Source: Pedobacter sp. | GTDB taxonomy: Bacteria > Desulfobacterota > Desulfuromonadia > Desulfuromonadales > Syntrophotaleaceae | Direction: 5' to 3' | Assembly (NCBI GenBank): GCA_050253415.1 | Contig: JBFWJC010000001.1 | Span: 160,001 to 224,000 of the forward strand | DNA: 64,000 nt | Shown: piece by piece, positions 58,801 to 64,000 of the stretch | Layout of the letters: the number at the start of each line of letters is the position of its first letter | Position numbering within the stretch: position 1 is the stretch's first letter | Program-made: the position numbers and the translations under genes | Notes under the pieces: generated by a model | The model's input: the letters and a program-made list of their open reading frames with translations, nothing else | What the model was told of the DNA's origin: nothing | Database searches by the model: none

Positions 58801-59032
58801 GCTCTTCCTCCCCCTGGCGGCGCAATTCGCGGCGGGTAAGGATAAAAATATTGCGGAATCCGGCGGCAATTCCGAAGCCGAGGAACAACAGCGTCAGCCA
58901 GGGAGAAGTCCCCAGCCAACGATCGAGATAGTACCCCATAAACAACCCGATAAGGGTCGAAGCCACCAGAGAAATACCGACTCCGGAAAGAAAACCGATG
59001 GATTTGATCAGTTGTTGTCTGTTTTCCGCCAT
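58784..59032 (-). CDS. atpZ: AtpZ/AtpI-family (ATPase_gene1) protein
   Basis: G...GYYLDRWLGTSPW....L.FGIAAGF.N motif. Confidence 0.88.
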   Translation of the reverse strand: MAENRQQLIKSIGFLSGVGISLVASTLIGLFMGYYLDRWLGTSPWLTLLFLGFGIAAGFRNIFILTRRELRRQGEEEHDDRG

Positions 59033-59200
59033 AGTTACCAAAATCCAAGAGACAAGGACGTCGTCCGAATATCTGCTTCCCCCGCAGCCCTTATCTCAAA
59101 AACCCGCCGGGTACGCATTCGAATGATCTATTCAAACCCGTATAACCGAGAGCGTGCTAACGGAAGTTAAAAGGTTTTCTCCCCCAAGAAAATCGTCAAG

Positions 59201-60166
59201 TCATCCCTTAAATAAACGGATAAAATGGGCAAAAATCCCTTGATCGTCATCGGCCACTTCCTGCTCTTTCATAATCTTAAGGGCTTCAAAGGTCGTGCGT
59301 CTTTGATGATAGGGGCGCTCGGCAGTGAGTGCTTCATAAATATCGGCAATACGGCAAATCCGCGCATAAGGATGGATATCCGATCCCATCTTCCCGTGTG
59401 GATAGCCGGTACCATTGTCGCGTTCATGATGCTGCAGAGTAATGGTAAGCGCTTCATCGGTAATGATCCCGTTTTCACTGAGGATGTTGTAACCTTCCTC
59501 AACATGACCATTGACCACCTGGCGTTCTTCCGGCGTCAATTGTCCCGGCTTGTTGATAATCTCAATGGGAATGCGACACTTGCCAAGATCGTGCAGAAAA
59601 AAACCGGTGCCAAGGTTATGCATATCGTGCGAGCGATCCTGGCCGAATAATAATCGCGCCAGTGCCACGCCGAAAATACCGACATTGGTAGAATGAACGT
59701 AGGTGGCATGATCGAAAGCAGTCAATCGTACCAGATATTTGGTTGCTTCTTCATTGTTTACGATGAGATCGACCGTCGGAACGATAACATCGCAGGCCTG
59801 CTTGATAAAGGGACCGCGAGGGTCATCAAAGGCCCGACGCATGACATCGCGACAGGCCGCCTGCACGGCTTTGGCTTTGACAGAAGCCTCAACATTCGGA
59901 TTATGAACAAGGTCGTCCAGCCTGGAGCGTAACATCTGGCTGTAAAAAGCTGCATCCTCGACGCGTACATACAGGTGTTCGGTACCATAAAACTGCAGAC
60001 GATCGATAGCAGGACGGCCTAAAATACCATGTTGAGCGACAAACAGAACGTACTCACCACTCCGGTTACATCGAAACAAATCACACGGAGCTTTTTGGAT
60101 AAAATGAAGGGAGTCGGTACTTACGGAAAATAACTCCTCGCCGCTGATATTTTCGGCCAGATCCAT
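59201..60166 (-). CDS. HD-GYP domain c-di-GMP phosphodiesterase
   Basis: TYVHS, LHDLGK, HHERDNGTGYP, ADIYEALT..RPY. Confidence 0.92.
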   Translation of the reverse strand: MDLAENISGEELFSVSTDSLHFIQKAPCDLFRCNRSGEYVLFVAQHGILGRPAIDRLQFYGTEHLYVRVEDAAFYSQMLRSRLDDLVHNPNVEASVKAKAVQAACRDVMRRAFDDPRGPFIKQACDVIVPTVDLIVNNEEATKYLVRLTAFDHATYVHSTNVGIFGVALARLLFGQDRSHDMHNLGTGFFLHDLGKCRIPIEIINKPGQLTPEERQVVNGHVEEGYNILSENGIITDEALTITLQHHERDNGTGYPHGKMGSDIHPYARICRIADIYEALTAERPYHQRRTTFEALKIMKEQEVADDDQGIFAHFIRLFKG

Positions 60167-60225
60167 ACGCTCCCCTGTAACAGGTATATTCCAAAAGGGC
60201 CTCGCAGTCGATCCCCCGCGGGGGA

Positions 60226-61530
60226 TCAGGACTGCAGATATGCTGTAATGCTGTCAGCGATCTTTTGGAAAATACCGGTAAATTCTTTTTCGTCGCGCTC
60301 CAACAATGTGATGCGGAAACCCTGTTCCTTGGTGCAGAAGGAAGATAAAGGGACCACACAGATACCGGTCGAAGCAAGTAGATAGTACACGAAACGCTTA
60401 TCCAGAGATACCCCCGGTTGATTGACCATACTCTCAACCAGTGTACGAACCTTGGTGTTTTCGATAGGGAGCGTCTGTTGATGTGTAAGCAATTCGGTCT
60501 TGATTACGACACTCATATAAAAAGCACCGTTGGTACGATTGACTTTGATACCAGGGACTTCTTTTAGAACCTCGTAAGCGATATTGGAATTGTTTTCGTA
60601 ACGCGCTCTCCGCTGATCGAGATACGCCGGATATTCCGGGTGTTCAAGGATGCGGGGTATCGCTTTTTGGGGCAATGTAGTGGAACAGACCTCGACCATC
60701 TTGGCGTTCAGGATACTCTGTACATACCGTTTAAAAACAGGATCCCGGTCGGCATTATAGACTTCGATCCAGCCGCAGCGTGCTCCGGGCCAGGGCACTT
60801 CCTTGCTGATGCCACGCAGAGCCATTCCAGGAAGATCGCCGATGAGATCGGATAACGGCTTCGTGGATTGTCCATTATAAACAATATTCAGGTAGACCTC
60901 GTCACAGATCACAAACAGATCGTACTCCCGGGCAATGGCGATCATCTCCCGCAAAATACGCTCCGGATAGACCGACCCGGTCGGATTATCGGGATTGATA
61001 ATCAGTATGCCGGAAATAGCCGGGTTATACTTCACCGACAACCGCAAATCGTCCAGGTCCGGATACCAGTTGTTATCGGGGTCCAAACGGTAGGAAATCG
61101 GCCGCTGACCGGCATGAGCTGCTTCGGCCGATGAGTGGGTGGAATAGGTCGGCGATGGTCCAATAACCCGCGCCTCGCGGCGCAGAAATCCGTAAACCTT
61201 CTGAATGGCGTCGCCAAGGCCGTTGAAAAAGAGAATATCTTCCGCCGTGATTTGCGCCTTGCCGCGCTTATTTGTCCGTTCCGCCAGAAACTCGCGCGTC
61301 TCCAACACTCCCTTGGTCGGGCAATAACCGTAAGTACAATCCTCCATGACCAATTCGGCAACCAGTTGTTTCATCCACTTGGGGATTTTTTCTCCCTTCG
61401 CTACCGGATCACCGATATTTTCCATATTGGTCTTGATACCCATACGCTGGAGAGTCTCGGCAATCTCCACGATCGCCCGAATCTCATAGGTCAACTCACC
61501 TGCGCCTATATGTACGATATCGTTTCTCAT
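60226..61530 (-). CDS. Class I/II PLP aminotransferase, AlaA (alanine transaminase)-like
   Basis: LTYEIR, NIGDP, INPDNPTG, DEVY, GISK (PLP Lys), PGARCGW, GAFY. Confidence 0.85.
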   Translation of the reverse strand: MRNDIVHIGAGELTYEIRAIVEIAETLQRMGIKTNMENIGDPVAKGEKIPKWMKQLVAELVMEDCTYGYCPTKGVLETREFLAERTNKRGKAQITAEDILFFNGLGDAIQKVYGFLRREARVIGPSPTYSTHSSAEAAHAGQRPISYRLDPDNNWYPDLDDLRLSVKYNPAISGILIINPDNPTGSVYPERILREMIAIAREYDLFVICDEVYLNIVYNGQSTKPLSDLIGDLPGMALRGISKEVPWPGARCGWIEVYNADRDPVFKRYVQSILNAKMVEVCSTTLPQKAIPRILEHPEYPAYLDQRRARYENNSNIAYEVLKEVPGIKVNRTNGAFYMSVVIKTELLTHQQTLPIENTKVRTLVESMVNQPGVSLDKRFVYYLLASTGICVVPLSSFCTKEQGFRITLLERDEKEFTGIFQKIADSITAYLQS

Positions 61531-61590
61531 GAATTACCTTAAGCCCCTTCGCCATACCTCGGTTAACTTGAAAAGAAATTAAATCCAAAT

Positions 61591-61625
61591 AAAAAAAGCC
61601 ATGAGCTTCCCCAGCCCATGACCTT
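61591..61625 (-). terminator. Intrinsic terminator in the aminotransferase leader (attenuator)
   Basis: - strand GGTCATGGGCT-GGGGA-AGCTCATGGCT followed by a T run, about 60 nt upstream of the ATG. Confidence 0.75.
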
Positions 61626-61654
61626 ACTGCACGGTGTCCCTACTTAACGGGATT

Positions 61655-61756
61655 TCAGACAGCAAGACAACGAGCTTCCCTGCGGTTTTTGGCCGCGGTG
61701 CCCATCGCTCGTGCTGCCTCTGCCGGAACCGGCAGTGGATCCCAGTGGTAAGTCAT
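61655..61756 (-). CDS. Putative Ala-rich leader peptide (33 aa) MTYHWDPLPVPAEAARAMGTAAKNRREARCLAV
   Basis: TAGGAGGT RBS about 6 nt upstream of the ATG; 8 of 33 codons are Ala; lies between promoter and terminator. Confidence 0.65.
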   Translation of the reverse strand: MTYHWDPLPVPAEAARAMGTAAKNRREARCLAV

Positions 61757-61781
61757 TGGTTTACCTCCTATTACTTCCCGT

Positions 61782-61810
61782 TGGTTAACACAGCTAAAGA
61801 TAAAAGTCAA
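61782..61810 (-). promoter_or_regulatory. Sigma70-type promoter for leader + aminotransferase
   Basis: - strand TTGACT-N17-TAACCA, with TG just upstream of the -10. Confidence 0.5.
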
Positions 61811-61894
61811 TCCCCACAGCTTGTAAAGCGGTTGGTTTAAGGATTCATTTCATGCTATAAAGAGTGCTTATTTCTCAAGGAGATAACTACCGAT

Positions 61895-64000
61895 ATGAAC
61901 CTAAGACGTTGGTTAAAAATGGCCCTTCTCAGTTTCCTGGGGCTTTTCCTGGCTGGGTGCCTGGCACTTGGTGCCTCCTATATGATGGTATCGGCCTCAT
62001 TGCCGAAGGTCGACACCTTGGCAGATTATAGCCCCCCTATCGTAACGACCATCTATAGTGACGACGCACAAATTATCAGCGAATTTGCCCAGGAACGCCG
62101 GATTCTTGTCCCCATCGCCAAAATTCCACGTCAGTTGGTGCAAGCTTTCGTTGCCGCTGAAGATTCCAAATTCTTTCAGCATCGCGGCATCGACCTGATA
62201 TCGATTACGCGGGCCGCCATCAAAAATATGCTGGCGGGGGGAATTCGCCAGGGTGGCAGCACGATTACGCAACAGGTAGCTAAAAGTCTGCTTTTGACGC
62301 CTGAGAAAAAATTTTCCCGTAAATTCAAAGAAGCCATTCTTGCCTGGCGAATGGAACAAAAACTTTCCAAAGAGGATATTCTTTTCCTGTATCTGAACCA
62401 GATTTATCTGGGACATGGCGCTTACGGTGTGCAGGCGGCGGCTGAAAATTACTTTGGCAAAAATGTCGATGCGTTAACGCTGGAAGAATGCGCCATACTG
62501 GCGGGCTTGCCCCAGGCCCCAAGCCGCTACTCCCCCTTTCGTCATTATGACAAGGCAAAAAACAGGCAAACCTATGTACTCAGCCGCATGGTCGAAGACG
62601 GTTACATCACTCGTCAACAAGCGGATGAAGCTGGCGCAAAGAAAGTCACCATTCAGCCGCGCAACGATCGACAGATTGCCGGGGCCGCCTATTTTACCGA
62701 ACAGGTTCGCCGCTATCTGGAAGAACAGTATGGCTCTGAAATCATAAATACCGGCGGTCTGAAAGTTTATACGACCATGAATGTGGCCATGCAGCAGGCA
62801 GCACAACTGTCTGTGCAAGCCAACCTTATCCAACACGACCTCCGCTGTGGCTACCGTGGCCCATTGCGTATCCTTGACGCCAAGCAAGAGGCAGCCTTTC
62901 TGTCCAAACAGGATGAAATCTATTCTCAAGCCCCTGCCGAAAAATCTGTTGTCGAAGGAGTTCTGGTCGGAGCCAAGGGCAATAACGCCCAGGTGCGTAT
63001 TGGCCGTTTTACTGGAAATCTGCCCCTCGACAAGGGAGGCCTGGCCAATAAATTGCGTGTGGGCCCCCGGGGACAAACGGTAAAACGCAGTAAAGAGCGT
63101 GCTCTGACATTACCGGTAGGCTCGGTACTACAGGTCAAGATTGAAAATAATTCGCCTGAAGGTCTGATTTTTTCCCTTTACCAGGAACCAGCTGCGCAAG
63201 GCGCCTTTATCGTTCTTAATCCCCATTCGGGGGAAGTCAAAGCGTTGGTGGGCGGTTATGATTTCGCCCAGAGCCAGTTCAATCGCGCCATCCAGGCACG
63301 CCGTCTGCCAGGCTCAGCTTTCAAACCACTTATTTACGCTGCGGCATTGGACAAGGGTTATACGCCCGCGACAATTATGCTGGACACCCCGATTATCTAT
63401 CGTGAACAAGGGGAGGATGGTACCGAAACGGAATGGAAGCCGAAAAACTATGCCGAGAACTTCACCGGAGTCACCACTCTGCGCCAAGCCTTGGCCCATT
63501 CCTACAATGTGGTTACCGTAAAAATGCTGCAGGATATCGGGGTCGGCTATGCCATCAATTATGCAAAAAAACTTGGCATCGAATCCCCCTTGAATCGTGA
63601 TCTGACCCTGGCATTGGGCTCCTCCGCTGTATCGCCGATGGAACTGGCCAGAGCCTATTGCGTCTTTGCCAATGGTGGGGTACTCATCAGACCGGTGTAT
63701 ATCACGCGCGTGGTAGATCGCTATGGAAAAATTCTGGAATCCACGGATCCCGCCGATTTCCCCGCGGGCCCCGGTCCTGGACAGAAGTTGATACAGCAAT
63801 CGCCGCAACGGGTCCTCTCGCCGGAAACCGCTTATCTGGTTACCAATCTGCTCGAAAGCGTGGTGAAGGACGGCACCGGTTATCGGGCCCGGGCTCTACA
63901 GCGCTCTGTGGCATGTAAGACGGGGACCACCAACGATCAGAAAGATGCCTGGTTTGTCGGTTACAGTCCGCGACTGCTGGCCGTTTCCTGGGTGGGATAC
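61895..64000 (+). CDS. mrcA: Penicillin-binding protein 1A (bifunctional TG/TP), 3'-truncated by window edge; absent from the ORF track
   Basis: AAGGAG RBS; N-terminal TM; AAEDSKFFQHRGID, QGGSTITQQVAK, RKFKE, YLNQIYLG; PGSAFKP (SxxK), SYN, KTGT. Confidence 0.95.
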   Translation, partial: MNLRRWLKMALLSFLGLFLAGCLALGASYMMVSASLPKVDTLADYSPPIVTTIYSDDAQIISEFAQERRILVPIAKIPRQLVQAFVAAEDSKFFQHRGIDLISITRAAIKNMLAGGIRQGGSTITQQVAKSLLLTPEKKFSRKFKEAILAWRMEQKLSKEDILFLYLNQIYLGHGAYGVQAAAENYFGKNVDALTLEECAILAGLPQAPSRYSPFRHYDKAKNRQTYVLSRMVEDGYITRQQADEAGAKKVTIQPRNDRQIAGAAYFTEQVRRYLEEQYGSEIINTGGLKVYTTMNVAMQQAAQLSVQANLIQHDLRCGYRGPLRILDAKQEAAFLSKQDEIYSQAPAEKSVVEGVLVGAKGNNAQVRIGRFTGNLPLDKGGLANKLRVGPRGQTVKRSKERALTLPVGSVLQVKIENNSPEGLIFSLYQEPAAQGAFIVLNPHSGEVKALVGGYDFAQSQFNRAIQARRLPGSAFKPLIYAAALDKGYTPATIMLDTPIIYREQGEDGTETEWKPKNYAENFTGVTTLRQALAHSYNVVTVKMLQDIGVGYAINYAKKLGIESPLNRDLTLALGSSAVSPMELARAYCVFANGGVLIRPVYITRVVDRYGKILESTDPADFPAGPGPGQKLIQQSPQRVLSPETAYLVTNLLESVVKDGTGYRARALQRSVACKTGTTNDQKDAWFVGYSPRLLAVSWVGY

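Follow-up and report, generated by a model that had tools for sequence, protein, structure and literature searches.

We analyzed a 64,000-nucleotide stretch of Pedobacter sp. DNA (assembly GCA_050253415.1, contig JBFWJC010000001.1, positions 160,001 to 224,000; GTDB family Syntrophotaleaceae, order Desulfuromonadales), hereafter called the window, and focused on the leader preceding a gene for an AlaA-like, pyridoxal phosphate-dependent aminotransferase. With a probability of about 85%, this leader is a classical four-segment, ribosome-mediated transcription attenuator that would be read through alanyl-tRNA and directly control a probable alanine transaminase; we infer the sensing of alanine from the sequence. 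The elements of the attenuator are present in the window, are conserved in related genomes and form helices that covary. An original prediction, made from the window alone, had proposed that ribosomes stalling at alanine (Ala) codons switch a terminator and an antiterminator ahead of this gene. This idea is now supported by the conservation of the leader, its reading frame, the position of its Ala codons, covariation and the existence of sister attenuators.

Anatomy and coding content of the leader

Leader and aminotransferase gene both lie on the minus strand, and positions are given in window coordinates. The most upstream element is a promoter-like site, TTGACT-17-TAACCA (61782 to 61810; TTGACT at 61810-61805, TAACCA at 61787-61782), with a TG at -15/-14 and a non-consensus -10. 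The motif stands where it had been predicted; a sigma-70 scan called 0 promoters at this site because the -10 hexamer lacks its final T, a position that is T in just 13 of 103 homologues. TTGAC lies 95-240 nt 5' of the terminator in 100/100 leaders, and the leader promoter is best described as a predicted, non-consensus one whose place is conserved. The expected strong ribosome-binding site is the Shine-Dalgarno (SD) sequence TAGGAGGT (61763 to 61770), whose duplex with the anti-SD reaches -11.5 kcal. It is followed, as had been described, by a short leader open reading frame (ORF; 61655 to 61756, ATG at 61756, stop ending at 61655) of 33 codons, 8 of them Ala, for which translation is predicted from the sequence. 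Ala14, 15, 17, 21 and 22 are the control codons, with Ala12 borderline, and Ala28 and Ala32 fall within the antiterminator strand; a conserved Ala-Arg(CGA)-Ala cassette, part of a CGA bias in leaders, lies at 61706 to 61714.

Folding predicts a protector helix 1:2 whose 5' strand, segment 1 (61700 to 61719), runs over the Ala codons (-32.4 kcal for 61655-61723; the register is not conserved in sequence). Folding and covariation identify segment 2 (61660 to 61675), in the final ORF codons, as the 5' strand of an antiterminator 2:3 (-24.1 kcal, z -3.2). Its 3' arm, segment 3 (61614 to 61629), is shared with the intrinsic terminator 3:4 (61591 to 61625), which has a 13-pair covarying stem (61625-61595; -17.8 kcal, z -4.3) and a 7-U run. 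The ATG of the regulated gene (61530) lies 64 nt 3' of the terminator, close to the 60 nt foreseen, and the gene itself (60226 to 61530) encodes a 434-aa AlaA-like protein of the PRK06855 equivalog (NF005334). Rfam covariance models gave 0 matches at E<=5 in 59000-64000, and no known riboswitch or leader family in that search explains the leader.

By themselves, the 8 Ala codons of the window ORF are a modest excess over chance (P=0.0076 against the 9.3% Ala of the proteome and P=0.0065 against base shuffling, both from the window sequence alone); the excess is decisive because it is conserved across leaders. Of the 110 loci we started from, 78 carry the terminator motif and 21 lack it, the latter group consisting largely of orthologues (67-73% identity) that belong to other classes; another 7 proved to be duplicates, and in 4 the upstream sequence was too short. 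Locus L048 was left out for a misassigned promoter, so that subsequent counts refer to 77 and then to 103 leaders. In every count kin are not independent, a caution to be held against our reading throughout. A sequence-agnostic terminator finder returned the wrong ORF or none at some true leaders (L018, L024, L041, L097), and a second pattern missed several.

ORF starts were assigned without regard to Ala, on the basis of their distance to the promoter and of the SD energy; the first start 3' of the promoter yields an Ala ORF in 86/100 leaders and the best-SD start does so in 77/78. GC dinucleotides are most frequent in frame 0 in 78/78 leaders (752/217/90 by frame). The 103 leaders contain 1026 in-frame GCN triplets against 258 CGN, 139 GGN and 122 CCN, and shuffling gives 317 +/- 17 Ala codons, which places the enrichment above the GC-rich background. 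All four Ala codons are used. Leader ORFs range from 24 to 41 codons and keep their starts and stops in register across this range, with free third positions. Ala accounts for 55.9% of the codons in a control zone -23 to -11 from the stop vs 15.2% elsewhere (103 leaders), while the next commonest residue of the zone, Arg (9.6%), is equally frequent outside it, leaving Ala alone enriched. The leader Ala codons lean toward GCA/GCG (63% vs 27% in the gene). Among 47 tRNAs of the genome, ARAGORN found only tRNA-Ala(GGC) for this amino acid, and the UGC isoacceptor for GCA/GCG is probably in unassembled rRNA operons.

An alignment of orthologous upstream regions, as had been suggested, bore out the Ala codons and the terminator/antiterminator covariation; the SD was the part that failed, being missing in leaders of the type found in the other order of the class, which we take to be Geobacterales by GTDB. 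Sixteen such leaders have hardly any SD or none at all, and their ATG follows TTGAC at a distance of 36-39 nt (loci of this type are L111-L130, L152 and L158). Because of this spacing they probably start at the predicted transcription start and are leaderless, unlike the SD-led Desulfuromonadales form.

The predicted switch and the enzyme behind it

A helix between the start-codon region of the ORF and the terminator 5' arm had been put forward as the competing structure. When the window leader is folded without a ribosome this helix indeed appears (-13.7 kcal), as it does in one close relative, but it is not conserved across leaders. With a median of -7.8 vs -17.6 kcal for the best partner, and being more than 2 kcal weaker in 74/77 leaders, it was rejected as the switch. 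The best partner of the terminator arm usually begins 21 nt before the ORF end (77 leaders), and the conserved predicted antiterminator joins the terminator 5' arm to the ORF 3' end (61675-61660) instead of to the start-codon region. The repeat GGGAAGCTC, noted earlier in both the ORF and the terminator, is real, but only its GCTC end is relevant, as segments 2 and 4 each pair with segment 3. CGAGC, examined for pairing with segments 2 and 4 as well, shows no conserved helix with either.

Covariation was scored on structure-blind alignments, one of them of 71 leaders. The terminator is 96.8-98.2% paired, with two-sided changes in 9/11 pairs. The 9-pair core of the antiterminator is 87-92% paired and changed on both sides in 7/9 pairs, compared with 28-46% pairing for slid registers; its outer six pairs are only 44-59% paired. 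One position switches jointly in segments 2, 3 and 4, reading T-A-T in 36/71 leaders and C-G-C in 17/71. The effect of a ribosome was estimated with a thermodynamic proxy (9-15 nt footprints) that does not describe kinetics. In the window, freeing the terminator 5' arm costs 6.3 kcal without a ribosome, 9.4-11.6 kcal with the A site at Ala14-Lys23 and 1.3-5.0 kcal with a ribosome at the stop, and the medians for the 103 leaders are 4.3, 9.0 at the Ala codons and 2.0 kcal, respectively. The cost at the Ala codons exceeds that at the stop by >3 kcal in 91/103 leaders, and Ala frequency drops off at the very codon where this cost falls.

The downstream protein scored 761.5 bits against PRK06855 (cut-off 443). 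Its best solved relatives are Escherichia coli AlaA (4cvq, 1.3e-44) and the alanine aminotransferase of P. furiosus (AlaAT, 1xi9, 4.1e-43), followed by tyrosine aminotransferases. Residues tied to alanine selection in AlaA are given in passages of Pena-Soler et al. (PMC4094517). The sequence alignment retains the Tyr15-x-Ile17-Arg18 plug, Ile40-Gly41, Tyr129 and an aliphatic residue (Val) at AlaA position 276, as well as the catalytic Lys region shared with both structures, and the AlaA-type residues are kept in 111-112 of 112 orthologues. None of the 10 scanned proteins among 16 other listed PF00155 members of the genome is named AlaA, AlaC or AvtA, and AvtA had no genome match above cut-off. 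The retained residues and the lack of these enzymes among the other proteins scanned make alanine transaminase the likely function. The PRK06855 family was also detected above cut-off in one of the control genomes, that of Methanocaldococcus jannaschii, an archaeal member.

Distribution, sister attenuators and the CGA cassette

The aminotransferase gene is present as a single copy in 151/151 genomes of the class Desulfuromonadia. A covariance model (R1), built from 71 leaders, matches the leader in 127/150 class genomes, and 125 of these 127 best matches lie 13-240 nt 5' of the PRK06855 gene on the same strand; of the other two, one has an unlisted gene row and one is a weak match elsewhere. 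About 90 matches fall outside the training handles, some named training loci possibly being the same genomes. By inspection, the leader was found in 19/20 genomes of the other order and in 19/20 further genomes of the window's own order. Its losses cluster in two families (2/10 and 25/39) plus one singleton. At L049, L087, L135, L177 and L183 the promoter is retained and the attenuator is gone, an apparent clean loss in one family. Outside the class, the PRK06855-type gene is patchy (17/121 genomes), and leader and gene occur together in four genomes (G185, G257, G287, G293). A 23-letter leader motif gave 69 metagenome matches, 59 of them directly 5' of the gene and 2 unrelated; for the other 8 the sequence did not extend far enough to decide.

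The window's own genome has just one strong R1 match and no further copy by this model; four second-best model matches that were checked are plain terminators, and alaS of this genome directly follows another gene and has no leader. In L004 and L008, extra palindromic insertions of 130-180 nt resembling multicopy repeats lie between terminator and start codon. A PBP1A-family gene (61895-64000, plus strand) diverges from the leader promoter, a neighbor common only to close relatives, and a gene for an HD-GYP-type protein (59201-60166, minus strand) lies 60 nt 3' of the aminotransferase gene, with which it is possibly co-transcribed.

Weaker model matches in 150 genomes of the phylum share segments 2, 3 and 4 and carry other codons. 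These sister leaders (L265, L267-L272, L274-L277, L279-L281, L283-L285 and L287) have Leu, Ile/Val, Trp or Phe/Tyr codons on the same chassis. Eleven cases combine a leader with a named downstream gene, the other matches lacking a named gene or an extracted leader, and the control codons fit the downstream pathway in 10 of the 11. Phe/Tyr/Trp runs precede DAHP or ADH synthase (5 cases), Leu runs 2-isopropylmalate synthase (2 cases), Ile/Val/Leu codons acetolactate synthase (1 case) and Trp codons trpD or a TrpB-like gene (2 cases). Extended to Ala codons, the same rule suggests that the gene behind them encodes an alanine enzyme. The eleventh, non-matching leader (L269) combines a run of Ile codons with an acyl-CoA dehydrogenase gene downstream and may mark an unusual isoleucine route. 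Elsewhere in the window's own genome (G000:C1:268514, minus strand; L151), a 30-codon leader with 8 Phe and 1 Trp is followed by a terminator and a DAHP synthase gene, and we identify it from these features as a second classical attenuator.

The Arg codon of the cassette is itself conserved. CGA is the Arg codon of the first Arg-Ala pair in 68/71 leaders; among the remaining leader Arg codons it accounts for 11/177, and within the gene for 4%, although the genome has tRNA-Arg(UCG). CGA-GCN occurs in 85/103 leaders and the full GCN CGA GCN AYC AGC in 13. In the two ilvB leaders built on this chassis, the sequence is CGA GTT ATT AGC. In a comparison with Streptomyces made after the fact, 5/5 Streptomycetaceae plasmid copies of a 22-codon leader (alaL) have GCG CGA GCG ACC AGC before a short alanyl-tRNA-synthetase-related gene. 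These plasmid leaders (L254-L258, about 960-1085) have a strong hairpin on the CGA cassette. Homology, convergence on a slow codon or an RNA signal may account for the likeness.

A bolder reading, which we regard as speculative and would rather bet against, combines these observations. Desulfobacterota would possess a modular attenuator family with a fixed chassis and swapped control codons, in which CGA before the control codons is a functional part (a programmed ribosome pause or an RNA signal). The Ala version would come from an ilvB-type leader (CGA GTT ATT AGC vs CGA GCT ATC AGC, one base changing Val to Ala). Shared ancestry or a convergent rule would link it to Streptomyces alaL, and alanine would be a widespread, overlooked attenuator signal across phyla.

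Proposed mechanism, alternatives and known systems

Several results weigh against an alanine-sensing attenuator. The leader is missing in 23/150 class genomes by model R1 and in most distant orthologues. Synonymous recoding often yields a partner for segment 3 as good as the native one (median z -1.4, z<-1.64 in 27/77 leaders, window -0.9). At equilibrium the terminator wins even with a ribosome at Ala21, and therefore the choice must be kinetic, as it is in known attenuators too. A paired-fraction measure separated the two states (Ala>0.5, stop<0.2) in only 58/103 leaders, with 0.68 at the stop in the window; it was replaced by the free-energy cost because weak local helices dominated it. In RNA-seq of one homologue (L172; 3 raw runs from one study), leader and gene are covered continuously, and depth is lower on the leader (about 3-18) than on the gene (up to 23-99). 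These standard libraries, which may lose a 145-nt RNA and may come from derepressed cells, show no end pile or step at the terminator, a pattern compatible both with termination and with its absence, which lends the attenuator no support. As for the enzyme, it misses the alanine aminotransferase model NF006230 (PRK08363) with 188.4 bits vs a cut-off of 534. It is only about 30% identical to AlaA, belongs to a separate equivalog from 4cvq and 1xi9, has a C-terminal insertion and lacks the Gly-Pro anchor after the plug, which is also absent from the P. furiosus row of the alignment. The genome also carries an alanine dehydrogenase.

In the mechanism that we propose, transcription would start about 25 nt 5' of the leader ATG. 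With ample Ala-tRNA, the ribosome would reach the stop codon and cover segment 2, so that the terminator 3:4 forms and transcription ends near 61591. With scarce Ala-tRNA, a ribosome stalled at Ala14-Ala22 would cover segment 1; the exposed segment 2 would then pair with segment 3 before RNA polymerase has transcribed segment 4, and the polymerase would enter the gene. Without any ribosome, the protector 1:2 would favor termination. The gene product would be the main glutamate-pyruvate (alanine) transaminase of the cell, closing the feedback loop.

The same RNA could instead act as a general sensor of translation stress or antibiotics, as does the mycobacterial whiB7 upstream ORF (uORF), with Ala enriched since Ala-rich nascent chains stall easily and with a transaminase of broad specificity. 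According to passages of PMC10274678, the whiB7 uORF, though enriched in Ala, reacts to ribosome drugs and to many different amino acids; the leaders studied here also contain 9-10% Arg, and the substrate of the enzyme is deduced from sequence. The single enriched residue of the control zone (Ala at 55.9%, Arg at 9.6% in and out), the amino-acid specificity of the sister leaders on the chassis and the metabolic, not resistance, role of the downstream gene make such a sensor unlikely.

A catabolic switch would invert the logic: at high free alanine, nascent Ala-Arg-Ala would arrest the ribosome and induce a transaminase that degrades alanine, much as TnaC is arrested as a nascent peptide with tryptophan. 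The A-R-A motif is conserved across phyla, stalling in the Ala zone would likewise antiterminate and transamination is reversible. What is conserved, however, is the codon (CGA, with the substitutes CAA, AAA and AGA) and not the residue, and some leaders have pure Ala runs without Arg. The cassette before an alanyl-tRNA synthetase gene fits a starvation logic, and a sensor of tRNA charging requires just such scattered, synonymous Ala codons; we consider induction by alanine very improbable. Just as little weight goes to the idea that the ORF is a by-product of a GC-rich structured leader, a riboswitch or protein-binding RNA that controls the terminator and draws its GCN triplets from stems. 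GCGGC-type palindromes do make hairpins on the Ala codons of many homologues and CGAGC is conserved at the base level. Against this stand the frame bias in 78/78 leaders, the free third positions, the starts and stops in register over 24-41 codons and the coupling of SD loss to a start at the transcript 5' end, together with the lack of an Rfam match and the fact that 5' of segment 2 only the Ala codons are conserved. An attenuator read through alanyl-tRNA thus stays our preferred reading.

If this reading is true, alanine joins the amino acids sensed directly by classical attenuation of a biosynthetic gene, through a leader conserved across a whole bacterial class that includes the genetically tractable Geobacter. 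It would also suggest a likely function, alanine transaminase, for the uncharacterised PRK06855 family, and show one attenuator that is SD-led in one order and leaderless in its sister order. The shared chassis and the CGA cassette invite study of how specificity changes in such switches.

The original prediction knew of no attenuator described for alanine, but alanine-type leaders are in print (whiB7 uORF, in passages of PMC10274678; Streptomyces lividans alaL, in passages of PMC8079986). Our literature search found no report of the window leader or of a PRK06855 assay, although older papers (ilvB attenuation by alanine, 1984; a 2010 comparative attenuation survey including delta-proteobacteria; a 2010 G. 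sulfurreducens transcript map) may contain a prior prediction. No leader of this kind is mentioned in the P. carbinolicus genome paper or in its six text supplements; that paper lists a 'nonspecific aminotransferase', Pcar_2772, which may or may not correspond to the gene studied here. Main-text passages of PMC545781, PMC4833913, PMC4007540, PMC13370626, PMC13236596, PMC3783181 and PMC11857589 contain no further alanine leader; supplementary files may include the 14 leaders listed for D. deserti.

Compared with the classical attenuators (E. coli trpL, hisL, leuL, ilvL and ivbL, and C. glutamicum ilvBNC, a three-hairpin attenuator in passages of PMC11857589), the window leader has the same short ORF with control codons, a stop codon 15-45 nt before the terminator, protector, antiterminator and U-tailed terminator sharing strands, and a putative biosynthetic gene downstream. 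It differs in that its control codons are Ala, its gene is a single AlaA-like transaminase of the uncharacterised family PRK06855, it has no Rfam leader-family match, and one order has an SD-led form and the other a leaderless one. The S. lividans alaL leader before alaS, a proposed alanine sensor, is predicted from RNA-seq only in passages of Droste et al. (2021; PMC8079986). Streptomyces alaL is likewise a short Ala-rich leader ORF, and its plasmid copies share the five-codon cassette GCG CGA GCG ACC AGC with many of our leaders. However, it has 22 codons, precedes an alanyl-tRNA-synthetase-related gene and shows no U-tailed terminator of the window type; outside the cassette no likeness was found, and a full-length search matched only Streptomycetaceae. 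The mycobacterial whiB7 uORF, or 'Ala leader', was tested experimentally and, in passages of Poulton et al. (PMC10274678), shares uORF-mediated transcription attenuation, Ala enrichment and the final induction of an alanine aminotransferase. In contrast to the window leader, it is long, senses many amino acids and ribosome drugs, and reaches the enzyme gene by way of a transcription factor instead of controlling it directly. In the literature covered by our search, part of it in passages only, alanine leaders are thus either indirect (whiB7) or predicted (alaL), and the type found in the window appears to be a trp-type attenuator tuned to Ala.

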